From: a virus
Direction: 5' to 3' (one strand)
IMG/VR virus record: IMGVR_UViG_3300028840_008180
Coordinates: 1 to 64,000 of that record
DNA length: 64,000 bases
In this document: positions 15,665 to 46,150 of the stretch, one piece after another
Layout of the letters: every line of letters begins with the position of its first letter
How positions within the stretch are numbered: the first letter of the stretch is position 1
Notes under the pieces: generated by a model
The model's input: only the letters and a program-made list of their open reading frames with translations
Databases searched by the model: none
What the model was told of the DNA's origin: nothing
Made by a program: the position numbers and the translations under genes

Positions 15665-16242
15665 TACCGTTGTGCTACCTGTTTACAGTCGTCAGAGAGC
15701 TTCTGGGCCTTTCGTAGCTTCTTTCGGAGTAGTTCGACTCTCTTCTTGAAGTGATCTCGCTCTGCTCGCAGGGCGTGCGTCTGAAGCCATTCTACGATCC
15801 GGTAGGTGTCTTGCTCCTCGACTACCTCACTTGACCAGCCTTCATGCTCAAACAGCTTGGGGAAGACGGTGTCGCCCTCGTGCTTGCCGTAGACCTCGGT
15901 AGCGATGACTTTGTCGACCAATCCTAGGTAGAGGAATCGCCGGTATATCTGCTCCCCGCCAATGACAAATGGCTCGTGACCCGTAGCTAGCTCAATCGCA
16001 TCTTGTGGTGACCTAGCTACAACGAGACCAGCCTGTTCGGGCATTGTTTTGGATATGACGATGTTGACCCGCATTGGCAGAGCACCGTTGGGAAGGCTCT
16101 CGAAGGTCTTACGACCCATGATTACGGCACCGAAGAGGGTAGTCTTCTTAAACCGCTTCAAGTCGGCAGGGATATGCCAAGGGATCACACCCTTATTGCC
16201 GATTACACGACCTTCGTCGTGTGCTACAAGGATCGTTGTCAT
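15619..16242 (-). CDS. folA: dihydrofolate reductase with C-terminal helical extension
   Basis: VIG..G.IPWHIPADLKRFK, IMGRKTFES, VIGGEQIY, GDTVFP. Confidence 0.95.
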   Translation of the reverse strand: MTTILVAHDEGRVIGNKGVIPWHIPADLKRFKKTTLFGAVIMGRKTFESLPNGALPMRVNIVISKTMPEQAGLVVARSPQDAIELATGHEPFVIGGEQIYRRFLYLGLVDKVIATEVYGKHEGDTVFPKLFEHEGWSSEVVEEQDTYRIVEWLQTHALRAERDHFKKRVELLRKKLRKAQKLSDDCKQVAQRYYRASCDFIPPPEED

Positions 16243-32250: not shown

Positions 32251-35200
32251 CTAACCGATCCTTCTGGTGAAGCCATTTTGCTTCTGTACCATGATGGTTC
32301 TGACACCATCAAGCATCTGTCGAAGATGGGTGTTGTGAGTAACAACAAAGACTTGTTTTTCCTTCGCCAACTCACAGATAGTTTGGTAGATGCTTCTCAC
32401 TCCTCGCTGGTCGATACTGTCAGAAACCTCGTCAAGGAAAACGAGGGATGGCCATGTTCCACTAGAGAACATCATTACATGAGCAAACGCCTGGGAGATA
32501 GCTAGGTTGATCCGTTTTCGCTCACCACCACATGTGACAGAGTAGCTGTAAGCTTTGCCCTTAATAGGCTTGATGGTGGCATCTAAATGTCCATCGAAAC
32601 TGACCTCCATGCGGCCATCCATCAGGTGTTCCATCCAGTAAGCAATCCTTGCGTTCAATGCCGGTGTAATACCTTCGATGATATAAGAGCGAATACCATT
32701 TGGGCCGAATACTTTGATTGCATACTTGTAGTAGGGAATGATTTCTTCTGTCGCCTTTACCTTGACATCTTGATCTTCCTTCTTCTCGATGATTTCGATA
32801 AGGTCTTTGCGAGCTTGTTTCAGAATCTCTACGTAAGGACCACCATCAACTAGTTCATCCTCCTTAGCTTGAATGCTTCTTTCTGTTTGAGACAGCTTTT
32901 CCTTCAGCACCAGTTCTGTTGAGGTGAGGTCAGGTCGTTGCACGCCCCCAAGCTCTTCCAGTCGACTCTTGTCGTTTTGAATCGATTTCTTGATTGCATT
33001 CAGTTTGATACCAGCAATCCTCTTGAGTTCAGCTAGTTTGGCTAACGTTCCTTCATACTTTGCGATCTCAAGTTTGATGCTATCCTTCCGGACTTCATTA
33101 GCATTGATCTTTGGTTCCAAATGGTCGATCTTATTGTTGTGAAGTTTGATCACATGCTTGTAGTGTTGTTTGTTAATAGGTCCATAACAGTGCGGGCACT
33201 TGGCACCTTCGGGAAGCTTATTGAGTTTAGCGATCTCTCCCTTGCACTTCTCACGTTCCTTTATCATGTCCCGCATTTCACGATCTAGCGATTTGTAGCT
33301 AAGTTTCAACTCGTGAATCTTCAAGGAGACCTTGTTGTGATTCTCTTTGGTTTTCTGGAGCGCCTCATCCATGTTGGTCTCTTTAACGTCCTTATCAGCC
33401 AACCCATCTTGAATCGCCACAATTTCATTTTGTGCCCCTTCGTATTCGAGCAACGCCGAGCCGATATCCGTATTTCCGATTTGACCTTTGAGGACTTCGA
33501 TTTGACCTTTGAGGGTCTCAATATCTTTGAGACAGTTAGCACGCCACGCTTTGTTTTGTTGCTCAACTTGCGAAATACGATCAAGGCACGACGCTTCCGA
33601 TTCCTTGATCTGTTCGTAGGCGGTCATAAGCGATTTCAATTCCGCCTCGGTTGCTTTCAACTCCTTCTTAGCGGTCTCCAAGTAGTCGTTGTAGACTTCA
33701 AGTGACAGAAGGTTCTCGGCAATCGCTCGCTGCTCTTTTGAATCACACTCCAGAAAGTTGTATTCGTTGTGCTGTCCAAAGCAGACGACGTTCACAAATG
33801 CTTTGTGATTCATCTTGAGGATTTCTTCAATTCGCTTCTGCGTGGGTATCTGCCCACCACGACTATCCTCGTTGTTGTTCTTGGCTGGAGCATCAATCCA
33901 TGGTGGGCCTCCTTGCCACAATCGGACAGTGTCGGGTTGTCGGGTGCGGACAATCCGGTACCGTACATCGTCGATGCTGAAGATGATCTCAACCTCAAGC
34001 TTCTTACCTGTCCGGTTGTGGATGGCATCTGTATGCTTAACCTTCTTCCTAATGGTGTTACCATACAAACCGTAGACAACCATTTCGGCTATGGTGGAGT
34101 TATGTACAACAGTAAAATCGGCCAAGAGAAACAAGTGGTTACCGTCAGTTTGGAAACCATAGTAATTTCCGGTGCCTATTGGTTGTACCGAAATACCTAC
34201 CGTTAGCGGGTCTTTGGATTTAGATGTAGGTTGACAAGTTTTACGTGGTACTCTGGTTGGTATTTTTGAACAGTCGCCGCCAATATGAACTCGCCAGTAA
34301 GTTCCGGTTGCTCCCGTTTGACATTTTTTTTGACATTCTTTGGGGTAAGCTGAGAAGCCTAATGATCTAGCGAGGTAAGCGACATCAAATACTAACTTCT
34401 TGTTCTTATTTACAAACTCGAAACAGCCGCCGTTAAGGTGCCCATCCGAGTCCATGAGTCCAGCTAAAAGCTCCAAACGTACTTGTCTTGAATTAGCCTT
34501 GTATTGTAAGGGCACATGTTTGTTGTCTATTAGCTGGTAAGACTTAAGGTCTTTTAGTAAAGAGTTACAATTACGTGGGAAGCAATCTTTGGGTGATGTG
34601 GCTTTATGCTCCATTTGAAGCCATTTACGAACTCTGTCTATCGACCGCCACACAGCGGCAACACTCGGTTTCTCCTCTTGGTACCTAGAACAGTACTTCG
34701 GATATGATTTTCCAGCCTTCGTGGCAATTTCACTATAACACGCACCATTGAGATGTTGGTTGTAAATGAAAAACTCCGGAGGGTCGGGGCGAGCATCTAA
34801 ATTATCACTATGAATGGCTAGGTGCGGAACATCTTTTGAGTTCTTAAATTCACGAACTTGTAAGTTGCGTGATGCTGCCTCGGTCTTCACCACTTCGTGT
34901 ACCACCGAGTCAATGTTTGTAATAATGGTTCCGGTCGAATTTCCGTCCCCCAACCAAATACCCAAAAAATACGGATCGATTCTTATTGGAGCCTTAGGAA
35001 AATCTACTGCTGTTCTGTAACCGCCCATTAAGTGCTTAAACGTCTTTGATTGTTTGAGGTAATCCTTGACGCTGATATTGAATATTGAAGAGTCCTCTTT
35101 GCTTGCGAATTTCGATTTGCTATACCGGTTGTACTTTTTGTCCTTAGTTTTCAACGTTAATATATGAGATTCGTTCACTACATACGAGTCTCCTTTGTTA

Positions 35201-35547
35201 GGAATGACCCGGTATAGTGGTTCTCGACCACGAGCTAACTTAAGCACTTTGCGGGGTGACGAATCATTTCCCATCACCTCATCGCCCACGACTATATCCT
35301 CTACCTTTTTGATAGTTCCATCATACATTAAGATGGGTGTGCCCTTACCAAAACATTTCCCCGCAGCATTCGAGTGGTACTCATTGCCTGATTCGCTACA
35401 CTCAAGTTCGTCCCACTCATCTTCATCGTGTAGGTCGAGATTACGACCTTTGATAAGAACGATGTTACCCAGTTCTGTGAAATTTATTTCGATAGGTTCT
35501 TCGCCGATGCAAAAGAAGTTCTTTGCACGGATGTATTCAATTCTCAT
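32251..35547 (-). CDS. SbcC/Rad50-like ATPase, T4 gp46-like, with intein
   Basis: Split Walker A SNAAGK|ST; Q-loop FGQ; CPHC hook; signature CGGE; Walker B FLDE; H-loop VTH. Confidence 0.92.
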   Translation of the reverse strand: MRIEYIRAKNFFCIGEEPIEINFTELGNIVLIKGRNLDLHDEDEWDELECSESGNEYHSNAAGKCFGKGTPILMYDGTIKKVEDIVVGDEVMGNDSSPRKVLKLARGREPLYRVIPNKGDSYVVNESHILTLKTKDKKYNRYSKSKFASKEDSSIFNISVKDYLKQSKTFKHLMGGYRTAVDFPKAPIRIDPYFLGIWLGDGNSTGTIITNIDSVVHEVVKTEAASRNLQVREFKNSKDVPHLAIHSDNLDARPDPPEFFIYNQHLNGACYSEIATKAGKSYPKYCSRYQEEKPSVAAVWRSIDRVRKWLQMEHKATSPKDCFPRNCNSLLKDLKSYQLIDNKHVPLQYKANSRQVRLELLAGLMDSDGHLNGGCFEFVNKNKKLVFDVAYLARSLGFSAYPKECQKKCQTGATGTYWRVHIGGDCSKIPTRVPRKTCQPTSKSKDPLTVGISVQPIGTGNYYGFQTDGNHLFLLADFTVVHNSTIAEMVVYGLYGNTIRKKVKHTDAIHNRTGKKLEVEIIFSIDDVRYRIVRTRQPDTVRLWQGGPPWIDAPAKNNNEDSRGGQIPTQKRIEEILKMNHKAFVNVVCFGQHNEYNFLECDSKEQRAIAENLLSLEVYNDYLETAKKELKATEAELKSLMTAYEQIKESEASCLDRISQVEQQNKAWRANCLKDIETLKGQIEVLKGQIGNTDIGSALLEYEGAQNEIVAIQDGLADKDVKETNMDEALQKTKENHNKVSLKIHELKLSYKSLDREMRDMIKEREKCKGEIAKLNKLPEGAKCPHCYGPINKQHYKHVIKLHNNKIDHLEPKINANEVRKDSIKLEIAKYEGTLAKLAELKRIAGIKLNAIKKSIQNDKSRLEELGGVQRPDLTSTELVLKEKLSQTERSIQAKEDELVDGGPYVEILKQARKDLIEIIEKKEDQDVKVKATEEIIPYYKYAIKVFGPNGIRSYIIEGITPALNARIAYWMEHLMDGRMEVSFDGHLDATIKPIKGKAYSYSVTCGGERKRINLAISQAFAHVMMFSSGTWPSLVFLDEVSDSIDQRGVRSIYQTICELAKEKQVFVVTHNTHLRQMLDGVRTIMVQKQNGFTRRIG
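34099..35355 (-). mobile_element. intein (419 aa) with LAGLIDADG homing endonuclease
   Basis: Starts CFGKGTPILMYDG; block B ESHIL; LGIWLGDG and LAGLMDSDG; ends VVHN followed by Ser. Confidence 0.93.
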
Positions 35548-36623
35548 TCAACTTGACTCTTTTCGCAAATGTTCTTCAAAGTTGCCAGTAACTTATCAAA
35601 GTCAAGTCCTTTTGGAACTCCCTTCTCTTTGATGTATTCTTCTAGCATTTCTTCTTGGCCGCACGCAACAATGCGTTGTACGTCCTCAATCTTGTGCCTC
35701 GTTTTTACATCCTCTTTTCCCTTGGGTGAAGAAAACTCGAATGTGAGGATGTTGTGACTCTCCATCAAATCCTTTTTGAGGTCAACAAGATTTGTTGCAG
35801 AGATATCCTTTGGTTCCAACTTGATGAACGTGTTATCAAGGTCAAACGTCTCAAGTTCACTCTCCTTGACGATGAGATGCTTTGGTGAAAAGTCGTTGAT
35901 CACATAATCCGTCTCTAACGTTTCTGTGTCCAACAATACCAAGTGCTTCTCTTGGAAGGCTTCTGCGAAATTGATCTCTAGTGGAGACCCAACATATTCG
36001 ATGTTGTCGATTCGTTGGGCAGCGTGGTAGTGACCGAGGAAAACTCGTCTCCACGGTCGGAACTTCTCCGCATCAACATTCACCATGTCTCCCTCATATT
36101 CCACTGACACATCTGCGTGTGTTTTGTAGAACGTATTCAACTGGGCTCCGTGCAATGCAATGTGACCGCACAATACAGGAGACTGGCTATATGCGAAATG
36201 CTCTAGTTCGTCGAGGGGATTCAACGTGAATGGTAGGAAGTCAATGTCCAGACCTTCAATGTTGATCGTTTCACATTTAGTGATGATGTTAACGTTGGGG
36301 ATCGATCCGAGAGGGATGATGCTACTGATGTCAAGCTTGTCAGCGAACCACATATCATGGTTGCCGATTAACATGTGAAGCTTGAGAGGGGACCCTTCTT
36401 CGCCAACATACTTTTTGATGATTTCGTACGTGCGTTGATAAGGTAAGACCTGAATCTTTTCACGGTCTTGAAAAAGGTCACCAAGAAAGATGATGTGATG
36501 CGCTTCTTTTTCGAGCGCAGTTTCAAAAACCCATTTCAGAGCATCGAGACAGTGCTGCAAACGTCTGAGACTGTCTTTGTGTGCGGCAACATGAATGTCA
36601 CCTGTCAGTAAAACCTTTGCCAT
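35544..36623 (-). CDS. SbcD/Mre11-like nuclease, T4 gp47-like
   Basis: GDIH, GDLF, GNHD, GHYH, YVGSP; coupled to gp46. Confidence 0.92.
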   Translation of the reverse strand: MAKVLLTGDIHVAAHKDSLRRLQHCLDALKWVFETALEKEAHHIIFLGDLFQDREKIQVLPYQRTYEIIKKYVGEEGSPLKLHMLIGNHDMWFADKLDISSIIPLGSIPNVNIITKCETINIEGLDIDFLPFTLNPLDELEHFAYSQSPVLCGHIALHGAQLNTFYKTHADVSVEYEGDMVNVDAEKFRPWRRVFLGHYHAAQRIDNIEYVGSPLEINFAEAFQEKHLVLLDTETLETDYVINDFSPKHLIVKESELETFDLDNTFIKLEPKDISATNLVDLKKDLMESHNILTFEFSSPKGKEDVKTRHKIEDVQRIVACGQEEMLEEYIKEKGVPKGLDFDKLLATLKNICEKSQVE

Positions 36624-37162
36624 TAGAATCCTGGGCCAATACCTGGAGGTCCACCCATCCCAGGTCCTGCCGCAGGTCCGCCCATCGGGGCAGGTCCCAT
36701 CGGTGCTCCACCCATCGGCGGTGCGCCGGGCGGTGTTGGCGGTGGTGCCATACCCGGCTGCTCTGCACCAGGGGCAGGAGCTTGGGGAGGAGGAGTTTCT
36801 CCACTATCTTTAGTATCGGCAATAGGCTCCCCAGACAATAGTTTTTCTAACAAAGACCAGACATCTTTTGCATTGAGTTCTTGCTGTGGTGCTGCGGCCT
36901 GTCCTGGGGCCCCAGGAGGCCCGCCTAAGCCCGGTCCACCAAGCGGAGGTCCACCTAGTCCGCCGCCGCCCATTGGCGGTGGAGGGCCTCCTAAGCCGCC
37001 TAATGGCCTTCCTCCAAGACCACCACCCATTGGTTTCGGTCCACCAAGTCCTCCCGGTGGTGCGCCAGGGGGTGGTAAAGGAGCGCCAGCACCAAGACCC
37101 CCCGGAGGAGGTCCGCCTAGCGGCTGTTCGTTGATCTGTTTTATGAACGCTTTGAATCGCAT
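36623..37162 (-). CDS. Pro/Gly-rich low-complexity protein
   Basis: Start MRFKAFIKQINE after a TATATAC motif; GGLGGPPP repeats around one helix, DVWSLLEKLLSG. Confidence 0.65.
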   Translation of the reverse strand: MRFKAFIKQINEQPLGGPPPGGLGAGAPLPPPGAPPGGLGGPKPMGGGLGGRPLGGLGGPPPPMGGGGLGGPPLGGPGLGGPPGAPGQAAAPQQELNAKDVWSLLEKLLSGEPIADTKDSGETPPPQAPAPGAEQPGMAPPPTPPGAPPMGGAPMGPAPMGGPAAGPGMGGPPGIGPGF

Positions 37163-37333
37163 GTCGTATATATGCAAAGAATTTTCGATATTCGAGCGAA
37201 CATTTTGGGTCCGAGGAGCGTCTATGATAGTACTCCGGTGTAAAAGTGCGACAACTGACGGTTGTCTTAACATCGAGAGGAAAAATACTTCCCGGCGTTC
37301 CAGTGGGATGTCGGGCCAAAAATGAGGAATACG

Positions 37334-37414
37334 ATGAGAACTCTATTGTCCAGTTTGTTTAGTCTCAGCCTGTTATCATCGCTCTATAGCGATGGAATTG
37401 GAGGGTCTGTCTAA
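37334..37414 (+). CDS. putative attenuator leader peptide MRTLLSSLFSLSLLSSLYSDGIGGSV; absent from the ORF track
   Basis: SD GAGG 6 nt upstream; codons 4-19 only Leu/Ser/Phe/Tyr; terminator about 25 nt after the stop. Confidence 0.8.
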   Translation: MRTLLSSLFSLSLLSSLYSDGIGGSV

Positions 37415-37437
37415 GCAGTCTTGGACATACGGGGAAC

Positions 37438-37482
37438 AAAAAACCCCTTCGGCCCTCTCAGGAGAGCCGAAGGGGTTTTTTT
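37438..37482 (+). terminator. intrinsic terminator (attenuator) ahead of the tRNA operon
   Basis: AAAAAACCCCTTCGGC...GCCGAAGGGGTTTTTTT. Confidence 0.9.
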
Positions 37483-37591
37483 ATTGGTGTGATATGAAGC
37501 CGAAAGCGACAAAACCGAAGCGAAAGCGAAAAAAGAAGTCGTTGGATCACAAAGAGGCTGCGGAGACAGCCGATTGGTCGGCAGACAAAAA

Positions 37592-37665
37592 GGTACGGTA
37601 GCTCAGTCCGGTAGAGCACTTGGTTGAAGCCCAGGGTGTCGTCGGTTCAATTCCGACCCGTGCCA
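37592..37665 (+). tRNA. tRNA-Phe(GAA)
   Basis: Cloverleaf; loop TTGAAGC; T-arm GGTTCAATTCC; no CCA. Confidence 0.9.
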
Positions 37666-37743
37666 CTTGCGGGAATGCCCGAAGGGATTACATTTCCAGA
37701 AAAGATGGTGACAGTCTCTTCATTGTTTTGTCCCGCACAAGTT

Positions 37744-37757
37744 TGATCTTTGACAAT
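37744..37757 (+). promoter_or_regulatory. boxA-like antitermination element
   Basis: TGATCTTTGACAAT versus rrn boxA TGCTCTTTAACA. Confidence 0.6.
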
Positions 37758-37815
37758 TTGGTAAACTCAGTGATCTTCGTGCCAAATCCAGGGCGTGCGA
37801 AAGTGCGCCCTATTT

Positions 37816-37897
37816 GGGTCGGCATCCCATTGGTGAGGGAAGCAGTCTGTAAAACTGTGGTCTAACGACTTTGGTGGTTCAATTCCACCCCGGCCCA
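37816..37897 (+). tRNA. tRNA-Tyr(GTA)
   Basis: Loop CTGTAAA; long variable arm; C at position 8. Confidence 0.8.
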
Positions 37898-37903
37898 CTT
37901 AAG

Positions 37904-38269
37904 CTATGATTGATCGGCTTGCCACGGCATGCCGGTGTATTTGGCAAACTCCTCATCGGACATTTGGTCACCCAGCTTGGTCGGATTGTAGCCGAGGGAC
38001 TTGAGACGCCACATTTCGGCCTCTACGTCTTCGGCACCATGACGGGCCATATCGTCCCAGTGAAGTGTTTTGAGTTCGGGAGATTCGCTAGCGTTCATTA
38101 CGTCGCCGCCGAAATCGTCTGCTGCGTTGTGAAGCTGGTACTCGGGTGGGGGAACATCACCAAGAGAGCGATTTGTTTGATCTACGGTGTTTATCTCACC
38201 GGTGTTATCATCCGGCTCCGAGTCGGACTGATTTTCCATTCGGTCGTGGTAACTTTGAAAACTGAACAT
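37904..38269 (-). CDS. acidic hypothetical protein, antisense within the tRNA operon
   Basis: 121 aa; TATATAC just upstream. Confidence 0.6.
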   Translation of the reverse strand: MFSFQSYHDRMENQSDSEPDDNTGEINTVDQTNRSLGDVPPPEYQLHNAADDFGGDVMNASESPELKTLHWDDMARHGAEDVEAEMWRLKSLGYNPTKLGDQMSDEEFAKYTGMPWQADQS

Positions 38270-38304
38270 GGGGGTATATAGCTGCTAGCTCGATAAATAG
38301 ATCG

Positions 38305-38904
38305 ATGCGATACAGCCAATTTGGACAAGATGAGTGGGTTCTGAAGACCATCCCTGATGGGAAGTACTTCGTGGATATCGGCGCAGGCGACGGCATTAGA
38401 TTCAGCAACACGTTTGCCCTTGAGCGGGCCGGTTGGAAAGGTATCTGCGTCGAACCCCACTTGGCACAATACAGAAAGCTGCGGCAAAACAGGAGATGCC
38501 ACCGGTGCCGCTACGCAGTAGCGGCACGAAGCAACACGATGGTGCCCTTTTGGGAAGGCTTGGGTGGCCTCAACGGACTGTCGGGAATAGTGGGATATTT
38601 TCAAGATGACCATCGGCGAAACCCATCAAAGGGCCGAATAGTAGCCAGGAAGACAATATCGCTGGTTGATCTTTTGAAGAAGTTCGGCGCACCTGAGGCA
38701 ATCGACTATCTAAGCATCGACACAGAGAACTCTGAATACATGATCTTGAAGGCTTTCGATTTCTCATACACCTTCAAGAGTATCACGATTGAGCACAACA
38801 ACCTCGAAAAGAAGCGTGAGGCAACGAAGAGGTTGCTCGAATCTCACGGTTACAAACGAGTTGGTATACTTGAGGTCGACGACCTATATCTTTACGATCA
38901 CTAG
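38305..38904 (+). CDS. FkbM-family methyltransferase
   Basis: YSQFGQD, FVDIGAGDG..FSNT, GWKGICVEP, IDYLSIDTE. Confidence 0.9.
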   Translation: MRYSQFGQDEWVLKTIPDGKYFVDIGAGDGIRFSNTFALERAGWKGICVEPHLAQYRKLRQNRRCHRCRYAVAARSNTMVPFWEGLGGLNGLSGIVGYFQDDHRRNPSKGRIVARKTISLVDLLKKFGAPEAIDYLSIDTENSEYMILKAFDFSYTFKSITIEHNNLEKKREATKRLLESHGYKRVGILEVDDLYLYDH

Positions 38905-38986
38905 GCCCTGTGGTGGAATGCTAGACACGGCTGGCTTAAACCCAGTTGCCCGTATGGGCGTGCAGGTTGGAATCCTGCCAGGGCTA
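38904..38986 (+). tRNA. tRNA-Leu(TAA)
   Basis: Loop CTTAAAC; long variable arm; atypical T-loop TTGGAAT. Confidence 0.8.
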
Positions 38987-39117
38987 CTTGTTTTCACACG
39001 AAATCACTAACGAAAGGAGAAACACTCGGTTCCTGATGCTCTGGCGGCTGCGTAGGCCGAAAAGATCAGAGATTGGGCAGACGGGCCGATTCACCCCCAA
39101 CACTGTTGGAGGTTATC

Positions 39118-40287
39118 ATGAGCGAGAAAACTCATGTAAACGTCGGTACCATCGGTCACATCGACCATGGTAAAACAACTCTTACGGCTGCGATCTTGGC
39201 GGTCCAGGCAAGTAAGGGTCTAGCAATTAAGGTTCCCTATGGCAAGATTGCTACTGGCGGAATCGTCCGTGACGATCAGAAGGTTGTTACGGTAATCACG
39301 AGTCACGTTGAGTATGAGACAGAGGACAGGCATTACGCCCATATCGACTGTCCAGGCCACGCAGATTACGTCAAGAACATGATCACGGGTGCGGCCCAGA
39401 TGGACGGGGCAATTTTGCTCGTCTCTGCCGCAGATGGGCCGGAACCCCAGACTCGGGAACACGTTCTGTTGGCAAGACAGGTCGACGTTCCGAACATCGT
39501 TGTCTTCCTGAACAAGTGCGATCTTGTGGAGGACGAGGAATTGATCGAACTGGTCGAGTTGGAAGTCAGAGACCTGTTGACCGAGTACGGATTCGATGGC
39601 GACAATGCCACGGTTGTCCGAGGTAACGCCAAGGGCGCAATGGATGACCCAGAGAACCAGGGTGAGTGCATCACAGAGTTGATGAACGCCTTGGGCAAGA
39701 ACATCCCAGAGCCAATCCGGCAACTCGACAAGCCGTTTATGATGGCTATTGAAGGAGTCTACTCCATCGTTGGCCGAGGAACGGTAGTCACTGGTAAGAT
39801 CGAGCAGGGCAAAGTACAGCCCGGTGATAAGGTGGAGGTCGTAGGTCTGCAAGATAGATCAGAAACGGTCTGCACAAGCATCGAGCAGTTCAACAAGCAA
39901 CTGCCTGAAGGGAAAGCTGGTCAGAATGTTGGATGCCTGCTTCGGGGTGTCAAGCATGACGAGGTCCAGCGAGGGCAAGTGCTGTCGGCTATCAACGCCA
40001 TACAGCCCTACACTCGATTCAAGGCAGAGACCTATGTTCTGGGTAAGGAAGAGGGCGGAAGGCATACACCGTTCTTCGGTGGTTACAAGCCCCAGTTCTT
40101 CTTCCGAACAACAGACGTGACAGGCATAGTCAATCTGGTGGACGCCGAAATGGTGATGCCAGGAGACCATGTTACGGTAGAAGTTGAGCTAGATAAACCC
40201 GTTGCCCTTTACAAGGGGAACAGATTCGCTGTCCGTGAGGGCGGCAGGACGGTTGGCTCCGGTCGTGTGATCGAAGTCCTAGCGTGA
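39118..40287 (+). CDS. tuf: translation elongation factor Tu
   Basis: [33 protein letters not shown]; SD GGAGG before MSEKTH. Confidence 0.97.
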
Positions 40288-40293
40288 GATTAC

Positions 40294-40317
40294 GAGCCTT
40301 AGCTTCGGCTAGGGCTC
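40294..40317 (+). other. UUCG hairpin after tuf (no U tract; stabiliser or processing site)
   Basis: GAGCCTTAGC-TTCG-GCTAGGGCTC. Confidence 0.6.
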
Positions 40318-40320
40318 TAC

Positions 40321-40409
40321 GGAAGCGAGGCAAATAATGGTTCGTTGCGGCACTCTGCTAAAGTGTTCCGGGGTAACAGCCGGTGCTGGTTCAATTCCAG
40401 TCGCTTCCG
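40321..40409 (+). tRNA. tRNA-Ser(GCT)
   Basis: Loop CTGCTAA; long variable arm; G73; A8. Confidence 0.85.
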
Positions 40410-40413
40410 CTTT

Positions 40414-40495
40414 GGATAGGATGGTGGTTGGCTCACCAAACGGTCCCGAAAACTGTACCTCGTAAGAGGCCAGAGTTCGATTCTCTGCCTATCCG
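40414..40495 (+). tRNA. tRNA-Ser(CGA), atypical (C33)
   Basis: Stem ACGGT/ACTGT, loop CCCGAAA; G73. Confidence 0.7.
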
Positions 40496-40500
40496 CTTAC

Positions 40501-40584
40501 GGAAGTGATCCGGCTGGATGAGGAGCGAATTTTGAAAGTTCGTGGGTGTAAAAAGCCTTTAGGGTTCGAGTCCCTACGCTTCCG
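40501..40584 (+). tRNA. tRNA-Ser(TGA)
   Basis: Loop TTTGAAA; G73. Confidence 0.85.
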
Positions 40585-40595
40585 CTTGGAGGAAA

Positions 40596-40769
40596 ATGGA
40601 ACTAGAAGAACACAAAAAAATGCTAATCAAGAACGTTGAGTGTCTTAGAGACAAGTGGCACCGTGTCGATATGGGTCACAACAAGATGATCGAAAACATC
40701 AAAAAAGCCCAAGCTCTCGAAGAGCTACAAGCTATCGAAACGATTTACAGTACTTGGTTAGATGCTTAG
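40596..40769 (+). CDS. 57-aa protein, tandem paralogue 1; absent from the ORF track
   Basis: MELEEHKKMLI...RDKWHRVDMGHNKMIE...WLDA; SD GGAGG. Confidence 0.7.
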   Translation: MELEEHKKMLIKNVECLRDKWHRVDMGHNKMIENIKKAQALEELQAIETIYSTWLDA

Positions 40770-40776
40770 GAGGAAC

Positions 40777-40950
40777 ATGACATTTGAAGAGGATAAGAAG
40801 CCGCTGATCGATTTGATTACATGGTATCGAGACAAATGGCATAAGGGTGACTTCGGTCACACTGAAATGATCGAGAAGATCAAGGAAACCGACGATCCGA
40901 AATTACTGGAATTGTATTGGAAGATTACGGATGGTTGGTTAGATTACTAA
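40777..40950 (+). CDS. 57-aa protein, tandem paralogue 2
   Basis: MTFEEDKKPLI...RDKWHKGDFGHTEMIE...WLDY; SD AGGAGG. Confidence 0.7.
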   Translation: MTFEEDKKPLIDLITWYRDKWHKGDFGHTEMIEKIKETDDPKLLELYWKITDGWLDY

Positions 40951-40951
40951 T

Positions 40952-41037
40952 GGCCTCGTGCCGGAACAAGGTAGACGGACCAGACTGAGATTCTGGGGAG
41001 CGTTACGCTCGTGCAGGTTCGATTCCTGTCGAGGCCA
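40952..41037 (+). tRNA. tRNA-Leu(GAG)
   Basis: Loop CTGAGAT; long variable arm; A73. Confidence 0.88.
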
Positions 41038-41042
41038 CTTAT

Positions 41043-41122
41043 GGCGGTGTACGCAAAATGGTAAAGCGGCAGTACTCAAAATGCTGTGATGTTGTTTGTC
41101 GGTTCGAGTCCGACCACCGCTA
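41043..41122 (+). tRNA. tRNA-Leu(CAA)
   Basis: Loop CTCAAAA; extended variable region; A73. Confidence 0.85.
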
Positions 41123-41126
41123 CTTT

Positions 41127-41201
41127 GGCGAGGTAGCCCAATAGGTAGAAGGCGGTAGTTTCAAGAACTACAGGTTGCGGGTTCGACTCCCGCCCTCGCT
41201 A
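41127..41201 (+). tRNA. tRNA-Leu(CAA) with short variable loop
   Basis: GTAGT-TTCAAGA-ACTAC; variable loop AGGTT. Confidence 0.8.
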
Positions 41202-41206
41202 CTCAC

Positions 41207-41281
41207 GCCGGGGTAGCCCAACTGGCAGAAGGCGCATGATTTAGGATCATGAGGTTGAGGGTTCGACTCCCTCCCCCGGTA
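41207..41281 (+). tRNA. tRNA-Leu(TAG) with short variable loop
   Basis: CATGA-TTTAGGA-TCATG; variable loop AGGTT. Confidence 0.8.
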
Positions 41282-41286
41282 CTTAT

Positions 41287-41372
41287 GGCCTTGTGTCGGA
41301 ATAGGTAGACGAGTGGCGCTCAGACCGCCATGGGTGTAATTGCCCGTGCAGGTTCGATTCCTGTCAAGGCCA
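41287..41372 (+). tRNA. tRNA-Leu(CAG)
   Basis: Loop CTCAGAC; long variable arm. Confidence 0.88.
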
Positions 41373-41374
41373 CT

Positions 41375-41794
41375 TTATCGTTTGATAGGAATAGCCCACG
41401 GAGTTTCTGGGATTTCTTCAGCGGCAGCAAGAGCGTCTTCAACGGCTTGTCGCATGTCGGGGCCGATGCCCTTCATGACCCATTCCTTTTTGCTTGGGTC
41501 AGCTTTGATTCGCTTGACGTACTCCGCTACTTTGTCTCGTTTGATAGGAATAGCCCACGGAGTTTCTGGGATTTCTTCAGCGGCAGCAAGAGCGTCTTCA
41601 ACGGCTTGTCGCATGGCGGGGCCTAAGCCCTGCATGACCCATTCCTTTTTGCTTGGGTCAGCTTTGATTCGCTTGACGTACTCCGCTACTTTGTCTCGTG
41701 CTCCAGCAGCGATGCCCGCACCCATGTCTCCAAATGCTCCTTTGATATCCCCGTAGCTGCGAGTTTCTAACCATTCATTGAATGAGCGTCTCAT
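41375..41794 (-). CDS. protein with a 53-aa tandem duplication
   Basis: Start MRRSFNEWLE; SD GGAGG; TATATAC upstream. Confidence 0.7.
   Translation of the reverse strand: MRRSFNEWLETRSYGDIKGAFGDMGAGIAAGARDKVAEYVKRIKADPSKKEWVMQGLGPAMRQAVEDALAAAEEIPETPWAIPIKRDKVAEYVKRIKADPSKKEWVMKGIGPDMRQAVEDALAAAEEIPETPWAIPIKR
41378..41697. repeat. near-perfect 159 bp direct tandem repeat, 2 copies
   Basis: TCGTTTGATAGGAATAGCCC starts at 41378 and at 41537. Confidence 0.92.
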
Positions 41795-41831
41795 TTCATA
41801 CCTCCACGGTATATATGGCCTTGCGTCGGGA

Positions 41832-42401
41832 TTAGTAGTACCTGAAATCATTCGCATGCCTCTTGCGAATGATTTCTTTCAACTGAGGTGTGAGAAGTTT
41901 TTTGAATATCGCTGATCGGGTTGTATTCTTTCTCCTAATCGCCTTAGGTGGTGGTAACCCAATACGTTTGAAGACCTGGGGGATGGCATCTTCTATGTTC
42001 TCCAAACGTATGACAACATCAACAAGCGATCTCCCCTGCTTATCACATGTGAAAGCTTTGATGTCTACGAAGTGCTTGTAACGCTTATTGCGAACATAGG
42101 TGTCGAAATCACACCGGGCGGACGCCATGTTTCGCTTTTTCTCAAAAGCGAAACATGACAGAATGCGGTCGAAGGGGTTTCGGATCGTTGTAAAGACGAA
42201 ATAGTCGCCCCATCTCCGTCCGGTTTTCTCAATAAATTGCTTTACCTTGTAGGCAGCATCGTGCCGACCCACCGGTTTTGCCCGCAAACCCTGGTCGTAG
42301 ACCCGACATTTATAGGCTCGAAAGTGCGAGTGCAGGCTGCTAGAGCCGCATTTCTGATTGGCCAGAAAGATGAACTTGTGAGTGTGAGATATAACGGTCA
42401 T
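41832..42401 (-). CDS. sulfotransferase family 2 protein
   Basis: KFIFLANQKCGSSS (5'-PSB) and TIRNPFDRILS (3'-PB). Confidence 0.8.
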   Translation of the reverse strand: MTVISHTHKFIFLANQKCGSSSLHSHFRAYKCRVYDQGLRAKPVGRHDAAYKVKQFIEKTGRRWGDYFVFTTIRNPFDRILSCFAFEKKRNMASARCDFDTYVRNKRYKHFVDIKAFTCDKQGRSLVDVVIRLENIEDAIPQVFKRIGLPPPKAIRRKNTTRSAIFKKLLTPQLKEIIRKRHANDFRYY

Positions 42402-42461
42402 ATCAGTATTTACCCCAGACGGCATATCCGTTAGGATATTAAGGGGTAAAAGGAGGATGGT

Positions 42462-42854
42462 ATGATCATCAAAGAAGTCGAAGTCGTCATCAATGTGGAA
42501 TACGGAGGTTTCTCTCTTGATACAGAGATGGCCCTCTGGTTGATGGAGAACAAGGGGTGGACGAGCACAAACGTCGACAGTGGTGAGGATGAGACCGAGT
42601 TCGATTTGATATCACTCGGTGATATGTTCCTCCGCTCGAAGAAATACGACGAGGTCGGGTTCAGAATGAACCCCGACCTCGTCGAGTGCGTTAAAACCCT
42701 CCAAAAGAAACACGAAGGTACGAATTGGTCTGGTGTTGCATACAACGACATCCCAAAGGTCTTGCAATTAAATGTCGTTCATGTAGAGGTTCACCTTACC
42801 GTCGAGCCTGTGTATGACGGCATTGAGAATATAGCATGTTGGTCCAAGATGTAG
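42462..42854 (+). CDS. conserved phage hypothetical protein
   Basis: VVIN..YGGFSL, PDLVECV, YDG.E; SD AGGAGG. Confidence 0.7.
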   Translation: MIIKEVEVVINVEYGGFSLDTEMALWLMENKGWTSTNVDSGEDETEFDLISLGDMFLRSKKYDEVGFRMNPDLVECVKTLQKKHEGTNWSGVAYNDIPKVLQLNVVHVEVHLTVEPVYDGIENIACWSKM

Positions 42855-42937
42855 CCAGGATGACGGAATTGGTAGACGACAATCGCTTAGAACGATTGGT
42901 CCGTAAGGGCGTGCGAGTTCGAGTCTCGCTCCTGGCA
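42854..42937 (+). tRNA. tRNA-Leu(TAG)
   Basis: Loop CTTAGAA; long variable arm. Confidence 0.88.
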
Positions 42938-42941
42938 CTTA

Positions 42942-43082
42942 CTAGATAAACCCGAATACTCTGAGAAATACAAGGGTACTGAATAAAGCTGCTGCGGCTG
43001 AACCAATGGTTCGGATTAGTTCCATTGTGTGGTTGTGCTTGTTCAACCACGTCTCGACTCGATTTCTACGATGGTCTGTCAT
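42942..43082 (-). CDS. 46-aa single-TM protein; absent from the ORF track
   Basis: MTDHRRNRVETWLNKHNHTMELIRTIGSAAAALFSTLVFLRVFGFI; SD AGGAGGT; TATAAT upstream. Confidence 0.6.
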   Translation of the reverse strand: MTDHRRNRVETWLNKHNHTMELIRTIGSAAAALFSTLVFLRVFGFI

Positions 43083-43146
43083 AAACACCTCCTACTAGTA
43101 TTATACTGTCGTTGTTAATAAAACTTAAGGGTGCAAGGAGAGGGAA

Positions 43147-43569
43147 ATGTCAGTGAAGAAGATTACGGTAAAGAGATTGGAGTGGTCGGAACTGAAGGAT
43201 AGTCAAAGACATCGAATCAGGAAAAAGGTCGCTCGCCACGCTTCTGAAGTACAGGCTAAGCACAACTACATGAAGCGACTGAAGCGATCCCGAACAACCA
43301 GTGATGCTCCCTATGTACTTCTTCCTAAGAGTGTGATCAAGCCGAAGAACGGCTTTTGGGTTGTCTGGCGGCGGTTAGGCACCGAGGCTGTTGTCACTCG
43401 TCGGACATTGGTTCACAAGGTGACGTGGGAGTTATACGGCCCACGGGAGAATGGTGTCCGATTTGTTCTAAAGGCACCCTTTCCAGTGAATGTCACCTGT
43501 ACTCAGGATAGGAAGGTTTGGGAGGATTTTGCCGCTTCGTTGTCGGTAGGTCATCGATTGGGAAACTAG
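43147..43569 (+). CDS. basic hypothetical protein
   Basis: 140 aa with SD. Confidence 0.6.
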   Translation: MSVKKITVKRLEWSELKDSQRHRIRKKVARHASEVQAKHNYMKRLKRSRTTSDAPYVLLPKSVIKPKNGFWVVWRRLGTEAVVTRRTLVHKVTWELYGPRENGVRFVLKAPFPVNVTCTQDRKVWEDFAASLSVGHRLGN

Positions 43570-43579
43570 CGAATTTACG

Positions 43580-43608
43580 CTAAAGTCTCGTAAACTATCT
43601 GCCGATAC
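43580..43608 (+). promoter_or_regulatory. sigma28-like promoter
   Basis: CTAAA-N16-GCCGATAC. Confidence 0.7.
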
Positions 43609-43627
43609 AAGCGATAGGAGAAAAGTT

Positions 43628-43912
43628 ATGGGAATACCAGCTTACGGAGACGTACTGACTCGTAAAGTGACTTTGCCCAACAAGCAAGTCCTGAGTATCG
43701 GTGTTTTGACAGCCCATGTTGGGGTCGGCGCAGTGCCGGAATTGACGGTCTCACTTCAAGACGAAGGTGGAATTGCTACCGCTTCACTGAAGACCGCCCT
43801 CAATTCAACCAATGATCTTCGATACGTTGCCAACATGTTGAATCAGGTGGCAACACGTATCGATCAGGTCAACGAAGAGGCCAAGGACGATTACTACGAA
43901 GAAGATGAGTGA
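43628..43912 (+). CDS. hypothetical protein
   Basis: 94 aa; SD AGGAG. Confidence 0.65.
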   Translation: MGIPAYGDVLTRKVTLPNKQVLSIGVLTAHVGVGAVPELTVSLQDEGGIATASLKTALNSTNDLRYVANMLNQVATRIDQVNEEAKDDYYEEDE

Positions 43913-44125
43913 TCCCAATAGCGACAATACTGACAGTACTTGCTATAGTACCACGTCTGTCGCTTACAAATTGGGCAAATACGTGTCCTGTCAGCGATCC
44001 GTTTTGCACGTCGTCGTAGTAGTATCCGTTTAAGCCACCGGAGCATTGGGCATCTCAGCCTTCATTGCTATCTATAATCGGCACAAGAAAGTGAAACGGA
44101 GTAGAAGAAAAACGTTAGGAAATAC

Positions 44126-44209
44126 GGAATCGAAGCGAATTGGCTAAGCAGCCTATCTCGAAAGTAGGTGCGGGTAACACCGTTGGGAGTTCGAGTCTCC
44201 CCGATTCCG
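44126..44209 (+). tRNA. tRNA-Ser(CGA)
   Basis: Loop CTCGAAA; G73; A8. Confidence 0.85.
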
Positions 44210-44390
44210 CTTAAAGGTTAAGGTGAGATTGGTAGGAAATTATCGGGAGAATGAAAAATGGAATGGCTTGGTAATTGGATCGCCGCTTGGTTAGACATGA
44301 TCTGTGGTTTCATCTCGGTGGTTACCTTGTGCATCTGGCGTCCGTGGTGGGATTTCCAGTTTCGTGCGTATTGGGCAAATAAAATACTCC

Positions 44391-44470
44391 GGAAGTGAAG
44401 CGAATGGTTAGCAAGCCGGTTGGAAGCCGGTCGCCCTCACGGGTTGCAGGTTCGACTCCTGTCACTTCCG
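44391..44470 (+). tRNA. tRNA-Ser(GGA)
   Basis: Loop TTGGAAG; G73; A8. Confidence 0.85.
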
Positions 44471-44473
44471 CTT

Positions 44474-44875
44474 ATGATCTCCATGAAAGGCAATTTGAAG
44501 TACAGTGATATCGCTGCGGGGCACCGCCCGCAAGCGGCGGTCTATCTCCCTAAAGAATTTGGAGACTACTACCGTGCGTTGGTACCTAAAGCGAAGGACA
44601 TACAACCACAAACCTACCCTCCGCACGTTACCGTTGTGAGGACTGGGCTTGAGACGCCGCCAAACATGGAGCCGTGGGGAAAGTACGAAGGTGAAATCAT
44701 TGAGTTTACCTACAACCCAGTGGTAGTGACAGACGGTATGTACTACTACTTGGATGTAGAATCGGAAAGGATCGCCGAAATCCGAAAGGAGTTAGGGCTT
44801 CCACGCTACCGTTTCGGCGATAACAAGAAGTACCACATTACGATTGGGAATGTCAAACATCATGCCACTTCCTAA
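44474..44875 (+). CDS. 2H phosphoesterase (Acb1/gp57B- or LigT-like)
   Basis: Two HxT motifs, PHVTV and YHITI, about 70 aa apart. Confidence 0.75.
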   Translation: MISMKGNLKYSDIAAGHRPQAAVYLPKEFGDYYRALVPKAKDIQPQTYPPHVTVVRTGLETPPNMEPWGKYEGEIIEFTYNPVVVTDGMYYYLDVESERIAEIRKELGLPRYRFGDNKKYHITIGNVKHHATS

Positions 44876-45194
44876 AGCATGTGACCGAGCCACCCAGGAC
44901 CTGATTGTGGACTTGTACGAAAACTACGAGTACCCAATCCAGACCATCTCTAAAATGACGGACGTATCGAGATACTATGTCCGCCAAGTCTTAGACCAAC
45001 GACGTGTTGAGCGTCGACCGCAAGCAAGCTGGCTTCGCACCTCTAAAGAGCGAGAGGACGAGGTTGTGCGACTCTATGTTGAAGAGCGGCTACCGATGCG
45101 TCTCGTGGGAGAGGAACTGTCGATGTCTGATTTCACAGTTCAGAGAGTTCTAAAACGTCGAAACGTTCAGACCCGCAAACGGAAAGACTACTGA
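44862..45194 (+). CDS. tandem helix-turn-helix protein
   Basis: Two units of I/V.LY...-HTH-V..VL..R.V..R. Confidence 0.65.
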   Translation: MPLPKACDRATQDLIVDLYENYEYPIQTISKMTDVSRYYVRQVLDQRRVERRPQASWLRTSKEREDEVVRLYVEERLPMRLVGEELSMSDFTVQRVLKRRNVQTRKRKDY

Positions 45195-45199
45195 GTGTT

Positions 45200-45583
45200 T
45201 TACTTGTAGAACCTTGAGTTCCCGTTGCTGTCGATCTCCCAATGGATTCCGAACTTGTTCTCCAGGTCCGAAACCATGTCTGACCGAGCTTTCCGGAGGG
45301 CGGGGATAACGTAGCGACCGTAGACATTATCCATTGCCTTGTACTCACCTATCGTCTGGGTTATTTGCCGGATCATCCGGATGAATTGACTGGGGTCAAT
45401 CTCAAAATTCTCTCCCATTACCCTAACGACGGCTGTGGATCGTCTTACCTCTACCATTTGCGTCCGTTGCTCGATCACGACGGGTGGCGTCTGTTTTGCG
45501 GGCGCAGGTACGGGCGCACGAGTGGATTTTGCCGTGTCTTTGAGTTGCCAGCGTGGCGACGGTATCATGTTTCCGCTACTCAT
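45200..45583 (-). CDS. hypothetical protein
   Basis: 127 aa; SD AAGGAG. Confidence 0.65.
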   Translation of the reverse strand: MSSGNMIPSPRWQLKDTAKSTRAPVPAPAKQTPPVVIEQRTQMVEVRRSTAVVRVMGENFEIDPSQFIRMIRQITQTIGEYKAMDNVYGRYVIPALRKARSDMVSDLENKFGIHWEIDSNGNSRFYK

Positions 45584-45604
45584 GACGTTATCTCCTTTAT
45601 CTTG

Positions 45605-45633
45605 GTATCGGCATTATAGCTGCTTTTCTTTAG
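45605..45633 (-). promoter_or_regulatory. sigma28-like promoter
   Basis: CTAAA-N16-GCCGATAC. Confidence 0.7.
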
Positions 45634-45802
45634 TTCGTAAATGTCAAATGTGTTAGGCAGGGTGTGAGAAATTCGCTCAAGTTTCCCATGTTAGATGTCG
45701 ATACCATTATTAGGGCCCAAAACATGGGCGATTTGCCTCCTGTGATCAGCCCGCCCCCGAAATTGCAGCACCGGGGGCGGGCTAAAGGGTATAGGAAGAA
45801 CA

Positions 45803-46150
45803 ATGGAAGAAGACAGAATAATATGCGACGAACTGGCTTTGGACCTCATGATCAACATGGAGTTACCGAGGCGAGAAAGGAAAAAGAAGGCAAAAAGGCG
45901 TTTCAGCAGGGCTCCGAGGGTAGCGGCGGTGATGTCTTCGCATTCGTCTGTAGAGACGGTAACAAGTGAGTGGCCTGACACCATAGATCACTTCGAGACA
46001 CAGAAAGCTCTAATAAGAGAACTAGATCGGGCGGCAATGGAATTATCGGAAGCAGAGCGGAAGTTAGATGTGCAGAAGCCGCAAAAGGTATCGGGCTTCA
46101 AGAAATTCAAATCAGGCTTCAAAAAGATCAAATCAAATCGAGCGTCTTGA
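45803..46150 (+). CDS. hypothetical protein
   Basis: 115 aa. Confidence 0.5.
   Translation: MEEDRIICDELALDLMINMELPRRERKKKAKRRFSRAPRVAAVMSSHSSVETVTSEWPDTIDHFETQKALIRELDRAAMELSEAERKLDVQKPQKVSGFKKFKSGFKKIKSNRAS

Follow-up and report, generated by a model that had tools for sequence, protein, structure and literature searches.

Why does a phage place a very short open reading frame (ORF) and an intrinsic terminator in front of a set of tRNA genes and a gene for elongation factor EF-Tu (tuf)? The question is raised by IMG/VR virus record IMGVR_UViG_3300028840_008180, a sequence of 92,082 bases whose first 64 kb were analyzed here and are referred to as the window. CheckV rates the record as 18% complete, so it is a fragment of the genome of a phage of several hundred kilobases. 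A preliminary description of the window had proposed that the short ORF is a leader peptide whose codons test the supply of the tRNAs encoded downstream. Our analysis supports this interpretation, and comparison with related phages provides the main evidence. We give a probability of roughly 0.78 to the view that the element is a ribosome-mediated leader-peptide transcription attenuator of the trp/his/ilv type, controlling tRNA genes together with tuf. Judging from sequence comparison and RNA modeling, production of these tRNAs is probably confined to conditions under which ribosomes read the corresponding codons slowly.

A leader ORF and the tRNA array behind it

The leader ORF, its match to the downstream tRNA genes, and the terminator between them are directly visible in the sequence (Table 1). 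Codons 4–19 read exactly as first listed, with seven Leu, seven Ser, one Phe, and one Tyr codon. Downstream lie 14 tRNA genes on the same strand, and their amino acids are exactly Leu, Ser, Phe, and Tyr. ARAGORN finds 13 of these genes at its default setting; the 14th, tRNA-Ser(UGA) at 40501–40583, was called by Rfam and, once its threshold was relaxed, by ARAGORN. Together, the ARAGORN and Rfam calls agree with the anticodon list of the preliminary description. Its central claim, that each of the array's 11 anticodon classes has a matching codon in the leader, likewise holds: cognate codons are present in the run for 11 of 11 classes.

This composition is far beyond chance. Leu, Ser, Phe, and Tyr account for 21.6% of the codons in the long ORFs of the record, so that a run of 16 such codons has a probability of ∼2 × 10−11 per position. 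The leader contains the longest run of this kind in all six frames of the record, and the runner-up has 10 codons. Coverage of 11 classes has P = 5 × 10−5 in random 25-codon windows drawn from the long ORFs, and none of 200,000 such windows reached the 68% of readable codons found in the leader. A second in-frame ATG is present at 37322, without a Shine–Dalgarno site.

The terminator is as strong as had been reported. Its stem (37444–37475) has a predicted energy of −24 kcal/mol, begins 29 bases past the leader stop codon, and is followed by seven T residues. An Rfam cmscan of positions 36500–46000 (E up to 1) detected no amino-acid leader family and no T-box, returning only tRNA matches and noise at 37438–37481.

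Related loci and arrays with leaders of their own

Searching IMG/VR with EF-Tu led, via a 67%-identical protein, to huge-phage contigs of up to 533 kb in which tuf lies within a Leu/Ser/Tyr/Phe tRNA array. Eight of these loci have the same array as the window, preceded by a homologous leader of 24–27 codons; the restricted alphabet of the leader and the geometry of the terminator behind it are shared as well. The conservation of the design is thus observed directly by comparison. The leaders of the relatives start with ATG or GTG and have a purine-rich GGAG, AGGA, or AAGGG box 5–10 bases ahead. The distance from stop codon to terminator is 19–29 bases in all loci, the terminators of the relatives have energies of −20 to −35 kcal/mol, and the terminator stem shows compensatory change at 7 of 11 pairs. 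In nearly all related loci, the longest Leu/Ser/Phe/Tyr run of the entire locus is a same-strand run of 9–18 codons located just 5′ of the first tRNA. As a negative control, we used 1.33 Mb of bacterial tuf flanks, obtained from a scan with a 77%-identical EF-Tu; they contained no same-strand run of at least 11 such codons.

These data bear on the possibility that the leader is a chance ORF lying beside an ordinary terminator that shields the array against transcription coming from upstream. The hairpin, with an A-run upstream and a T-run downstream, could indeed act in both directions. However, the run statistics, the retention of the ORF, its frame, and its stop-to-terminator distance in eight relatives, and the empty 1.33-Mb control bring this explanation close to refutation, and we find it scarcely credible.

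Within the runs, Leu and Ser codons are swapped freely among the relatives, whereas Ile, Val, Ala, and Met hardly occur. Such swapping inside a four-letter alphabet fits selection acting on the tRNAs that are used, not on the chemistry of the peptide. Given the peptide and the codon usage of each genome, class coverage has P = 0.047, 0.008, 0.10, 0.023, and 0.012 in five lineages. The same pattern bears on a different alternative, in which the ORF has a terminator of its own and codes for a small hydrophobic peptide of the membrane, for instance a toxin-like or lysis-related one; the array would then be transcribed from a separate promoter, and the match in composition would be incidental. The basic N-terminus and Leu-rich stretch of the leader peptide do resemble a signal or membrane segment, and in the window 109 bases separate the terminator from tRNA-Phe. 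Yet the homologues exchange Leu for Ser and avoid the Ile, Val, Ala, and Met residues that a membrane helix would tolerate, and the conserved hydrophobic helix under peptide selection that characterizes small membrane peptides and type I toxins was not found among them. Moreover, only 13–18 bases lie between the end of the terminator and the first tRNA in four relatives (L003, L007, L010, and L008). This gap leaves no room for a bypass promoter, so the first tRNA there would be made only by read-through. A membrane peptide is therefore very improbable, all the more because leaders of other arrays, described below, are hydrophilic despite having the same architecture.

The attenuator interpretation gains further support from phages in which arrays for other amino acids have leaders of their own. 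In a 436-kb relative, a second leader (B) and its terminator precede an Asn/Lys/Ile/His/Gln/Arg/Cys/Gly array and cover 11 of its 11 anticodon classes, and a third (C), also with a terminator, precedes a Met/Pro/Gly/Asp/Thr/Glu/Val/Ala array and covers 16 of 16. The matrix of leaders against arrays in this genome is diagonal: the three leaders match 11/11, 11/11, and 16/16 classes of their own arrays and only 1–6 classes of the wrong ones. In a 188-kb relative, an array of 40 tRNAs serves exactly the other 16 amino acids, and the leader in front of it has 44 codons, none of them for Leu, Ser, or Tyr. This leader matches 26 of the 27 anticodon classes (null P = 4 × 10−4), and the tRNAs of the array can read 42 of the 44 codons. 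Covariation of leader and anticodons in homologues had been named at the outset as the decisive test, and its outcome is positive. The eight loci retain a Leu/Ser/Phe/Tyr leader, the leaders of other arrays use the amino acids of those arrays, and in these large phages the alphabet of the leader is that of its own array and accompanies a predicted switchable terminator.

Searches for additional cases gave few results. A terminator-based pattern recovered the known loci and 19 unrelated terminators from IMG/VR, a pattern built on the terminator of the window itself matched nothing there, and, among the matches listed, a metagenome pattern scan yielded only three additions, all identical to known leaders. 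No leader-like ORFs were seen upstream of the arrays in L021 and L027 or at the weaker terminators that precede further arrays of the 532-kb and 188-kb relatives.

Several features of the related arrays merit mention in their own right. In the 188-kb relative, tuf is located in the 16-amino-acid array. tRNAs with the anticodons CUA (amber) and UCA (opal) occur in or near arrays at 9227–9317 of L006 and at ∼191389 and ∼219242 of the G002 record; these are possible suppressors and hint at stop-codon recoding. At 16192–16311 of L010, and also at ∼16000 of L003, ∼17200 of L035, and ∼18200 of the G002 record, a conserved element resembles the GTPase-associated region of 23S rRNA. It matches positions 1078–1159 of the Rfam large-subunit model (38.6 bits) and may mimic a binding site for ribosomal protein; a terminator and two tRNA-Leu genes come after it.

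The predicted switch and the genes probably under its control

How could the position of a ribosome on the leader decide the fate of the terminator? Alternative folds were predicted in silico for the nine loci with ViennaRNA, taking each transcript up to the terminator loop and masking the bases covered by a ribosome. With a ribosome stalled in the run, a three-part antiterminator is predicted in all nine. In the window, its outer stem joins GGAGGGUC (37400–37407) to GGCCCUCU (37451–37458), the very pairing that the preliminary description had proposed from inspection; the other parts are a hairpin at 37408–37427 and a GGGG:CCCC helix between 37431–37434 and 37444–37447. The predicted energy is −26 kcal/mol (z = −3.86), and a shuffled sequence was as stable in 0 of 200 cases in one test and 1 of 300 in another. 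Stability exceeds that of shuffles in seven of the nine loci, and the same pairing is formed by different helix sequences in four lineages. With the ribosome at the stop codon, the antiterminator is predicted to be lost in the nine loci, leaving a 4-bp remnant. Masked-ribosome folding, which had been suggested as a check, thus gives the expected response to both positions. In the absence of a ribosome, the run is predicted to pair with the ORF tail in the window, L006, L009, L035, L008, and L004, as in trp superattenuation; this region 1–2 pairing is not predicted in L003, L007, and L010.

From these folds we infer a mechanism that depends on translation of the leader and on a response to stalling. 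Transcription would start ∼35 bases 5′ of the leader, and a ribosome would begin the 26-codon ORF. With rapid decoding of Leu, Ser, Phe, and Tyr codons, the ribosome would advance to the stop codon at 37412–37414 and cover 37400–37427, which comprises the tail of the ORF and the stop-codon hairpin. The terminator would then form, and transcription would end. If even one of the 11 isoacceptor classes runs short or lacks its amino acid, the ribosome would instead stall within the run and leave the tail free. The tail would pair with the distal half of the terminator 5′ arm, and the GGGG box with the CCCC at the start of that arm, so that polymerase would read into the array. Without any ribosome, pairing of the run with the tail would again permit the terminator to form. 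The net effect would be negative feedback, in which the tRNA set and EF-Tu are made when decoding is limiting and production stops when supply is adequate.

The same switch could also serve as a reporter of general translation status, responding to host shut-off, to ribosome-targeting toxins or antibiotics, or to low ribosome supply, with codon matching as a secondary refinement. The predicted folds would react wherever in the run the ribosome stalls and for whatever reason, and accessory tRNA arrays of cyanobacteria are reportedly induced by translational stress (PMC8421152). A general sensor, however, needs no codon matching, whereas the phage leaders correspond, anticodon class for anticodon class, to the arrays behind them in each of three alphabets, with a class coverage that exceeds what codon usage predicts. 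We regard a purely general role as improbable.

A number of observations weigh against the attenuator interpretation. The leaders are homologous, and because of this shared ancestry the nine loci amount to about five lineages, not nine independent cases; the leader regions align at the DNA level with 58% mean column identity. In the complete 532-kb relative, no leader was found for the arrays other than Leu/Ser/Phe/Tyr. The leaders of L010 and L011 keep Ser codons, yet no tRNA-Ser was found within 14.5 kb downstream; default ARAGORN misses several tRNAs in these phages. The antiterminators of L008 and L004 are no better than those of shuffled sequences. Formal covariation is modest, with 82.5% of cells paired versus 30%–57% in slid controls and four compensatory pairs in a nine-row MAFFT alignment. 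At equilibrium, moreover, the full transcript adopts the terminator with a probability of ∼0.99 in every ribosome state. Read-through must therefore rest on co-transcriptional trapping, which would make the element a kinetic switch; such trapping is also assumed for classical attenuators. Finally, the 109 bases that lie between the T-run and tRNA-Phe in the window make an internal promoter possible at this locus.

Promoter searches address this last point in part. A consensus scan of 37483–37591 found no sigma-70 site; the stem and loop limits of the consensus scan caused it to miss the main terminator. A GCCGAT box at 37569, within the 109-base gap, is a poor fit to a motif of this phage, CTAAAG followed after 15 bases by GCCGATA, that recurs at gene starts: at 43579–43607 (+), 45612 (−), and 54025 (−) of the window and at 65674 and 66580 (+) and 90857 (−) of the record. 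The motif resembles a promoter class that is phage-specific or sigma-28-like. Upstream of the leader, all eight relatives share a sigma-70-like promoter motif, with a CTTGAAA-like box and, 16–17 bases further on, TACTAT or TACCAT, ∼50 bases 5′ of the leader start; the corresponding candidate in the window is a weaker match (Table 1).

The genes probably controlled by the switch are, in order, tRNA-Phe(GAA), tRNA-Tyr(GUA), an FkbM-type methyltransferase ORF (38305–38904), tRNA-Leu(UAA), tuf (39118–40287), tRNA-Ser(GCU), tRNA-Ser(CGA), tRNA-Ser(UGA), tRNA-Leu(GAG), two tRNA-Leu(CAA), tRNA-Leu(UAG), and tRNA-Leu(CAG). The preliminary description had treated all 14 tRNAs and tuf as one operon. The count and the shared orientation stand; however, three minus-strand ORFs at 41375–42751, one of them encoding a sulfotransferase of the Sulfotransfer_2 family (E = 2.7 × 10−12), interrupt the array, so the last three tRNAs (starting at 42854, 44126, and 44391) are probably outside the transcription unit. 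The transcription unit that follows the terminator probably extends to about 41400, and the three distal tRNAs (42854–44471) probably have a promoter of their own, for which the CTAAAG motif copy ending at ∼43607 offers a candidate position. The original end coordinate of the locus, 44875, is the end of an unrelated ORF and was not retained.

Table 1. Features of the leader, its terminator, and the downstream tRNA genes in the window
Feature	Position	Strand	Remarks
Candidate sigma-70-type promoter of the leader transcript	37262–37291	+	TTGTCT, 18 bases, TACTTC; weak match, putative
Shine–Dalgarno site	37324–37328	+	GAGGA, 5 bases 5′ of the ATG
Leader ORF	37334–37414	+	26 codons, TAA stop; homologous ORFs of 24–27 codons in eight related loci
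Regulatory run	37343–37390	+	Codons 4–19; 16 codons, Leu/Ser/Phe/Tyr only; 12 distinct codons, 11 anticodon classes
Region 1	37347–37372	+	5′ strand of a long hairpin predicted (ViennaRNA) to pair with the ORF tail and stop-codon region without a ribosome (anti-antiterminator)
Region 2, antiterminator 5′ strand	37400–37434	+	Predicted outer stem GGAGGGUC 37400–37407; stop-codon hairpin 37408–37427; GGGG box 37431–37434
Intrinsic terminator	37444–37482	+	5′ arm 37444–37457 (region 3), loop 37458–37461, 3′ arm 37462–37475 (region 4), T7 37476–37482
Probable controlled unit	37592–41373	+	11 tRNAs, methyltransferase ORF, and tuf; presumed transcript extent
tRNA-Leu(UAG), past the minus-strand block	42854–42938	+	ARAGORN
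tRNA-Ser(CGA), past the minus-strand block	44126–44210	+	ARAGORN
tRNA-Ser(GGA), past the minus-strand block	44391–44471	+	ARAGORN

Two of the tRNAs have an unusual form. Those at 41127–41202 and 41207–41282 are 76 bases long, with ordinary short variable loops, Leu anticodons (CAA and UAG), and A73. The two share 75% identity, lie beside Leu tRNAs with long arms, and have counterparts of the same kind in L008 and L035.

What purpose would such control serve? Three candidate benefits, which sequence cannot separate, are compensation for codon usage, replacement of tRNAs after host shut-off, and counter-defense against anticodon nucleases. The last of these can be extended into a broader proposal, in which the genetic code is split into tRNA blocks, each gauged by a leader that acts as its own test strip with about one codon for each isoacceptor. 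If any one isoacceptor of the host or the phage were lost, for instance to an anticodon nuclease, exactly the block that replaces it would then be switched on, together with EF-Tu, as an on-demand counter-defense. We hold this extended proposal to be doubtful. The link of the array to counter-defense is speculation; the sequence evidence does not point specifically to defense.

Genomic setting and relation to known systems

The phage EF-Tu is full length and carries all three Pfam domains. Its closest relatives are labeled Planctomycetota, with 77% identity to a protein from a metagenome-assembled genome and 68%–70% identity to proteins of Pirellulaceae and Fuerstiella, which suggests the phylum of the host; on this evidence, a planctomycete host is likely. 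A 339.8-kb contig encodes an EF-Tu identical to that of the window. A similarity search of phage records matched only tuf and tRNAs, and a 216-aa protein encoded upstream of the leader had no useful relatives in IMG/VR. Farther upstream, a minus-strand gene at 32251–35547 encodes an SMC/Rad50-like ATPase of 1098 aa that contains an intein with Hint and LAGLIDADG homing endonuclease domains; it adjoins a calcineurin-like phosphoesterase gene (35544–36623), an arrangement like that of an SbcCD pair. At the other end, the plus-strand ORF at 44420–44875 weakly matches the 2H phosphoesterase domain (E = 5 × 10−4, under the family cut-off), a fold that serves in RNA repair. Because this ORF overlaps the 3′ part of tRNA-Ser(GGA), its real start lies further downstream.

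If the proposed control is confirmed, it will have several implications. First, huge phages would be seen to measure decoding speed for each codon class and to adjust tRNA supply, beyond merely carrying tRNAs. Second, the sorting of phage tRNA genes into amino-acid blocks would be explained. Third, the leader would offer a small natural element that responds to many isoacceptors simultaneously and might be employed to sense tRNA availability; if the block-by-block proposal is true, it would be a natural isoacceptor-resolved sensor. Finally, the purpose of phage tRNAs would become directly testable among the three benefits named above.

It is useful to compare this locus with described regulatory systems. 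Enterobacterial attenuators include the thr leader, with Thr and Ile codons, the ilvGMEDA leader, with Ile, Leu, and Val codons, and the trp, his, leu, and phe leaders. Like them, the phage locus has a short codon-rich ORF followed by a terminator, a ribosome-positioned antiterminator, and a region 1–2 hairpin when untranslated, the last two being in silico predictions here. Indeed, a short ORF with a putative ribosome-binding site and a start codon precedes the genes in the window and its eight relatives, a cluster of codons for the sensed amino acids lies inside it, and an intrinsic terminator stands between it and the genes. The antiterminator is predicted to use the terminator 5′ arm and to be blocked by a ribosome at the stop codon, and region 1–2 pairing of the untranslated leader is predicted in the window and five relatives. 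The differences lie in what is controlled and how it is sensed. Enterobacterial attenuators control biosynthetic enzymes, whereas the phage leader would control tRNA genes and EF-Tu. Since the downstream genes (tRNAs, tuf, and a methyltransferase) are not amino-acid biosynthesis or synthetase genes, the locus is a variant of this kind and not a member of a described family. Enterobacterial leaders also repeat one codon, whereas the phage leaders are spread over all synonymous classes, with about one or two codons per isoacceptor, and among the relatives a leader can represent as many as 16 amino acids and 26 anticodon classes.

Other systems share single aspects of the design. The pheST attenuator, with its pheM leader, regulates phenylalanyl-tRNA synthetase of Escherichia coli according to the supply of charged tRNA. 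It is thus a leader-peptide attenuator acting on a component of the translation machinery, but it belongs to a host, senses one amino acid, and controls a synthetase rather than tRNA genes. T-box riboswitches also read the state of specific tRNAs and toggle a terminator against an antiterminator; they differ in binding uncharged tRNA directly, without need for translation, and the window locus has no T-box match. Phage tRNA clusters counter host anticodon nucleases, as T5 tRNAs do against retron/PtuAB or PARIS, and have in common with the present array that phage-encoded tRNAs replace those of the host; we know of no sensing leader described for them. The long tRNA arrays (L-arrays) of cyanobacteria are silent until translation is impaired (PMC8421152). 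They too are accessory arrays expressed on demand under translation stress; however, they are cellular, and no leader, attenuation, terminator, or codon-matched ORF is described for them (PMC8421152). The literature searched yielded no description of tRNA genes, whether phage or cellular, that are controlled by a leader peptide. Overall, what appears to be new here, as far as sequence and predicted folds indicate, is that leader-peptide attenuation, known from amino-acid and synthetase operons, is applied in a virus to a tRNA pool and a translation factor.

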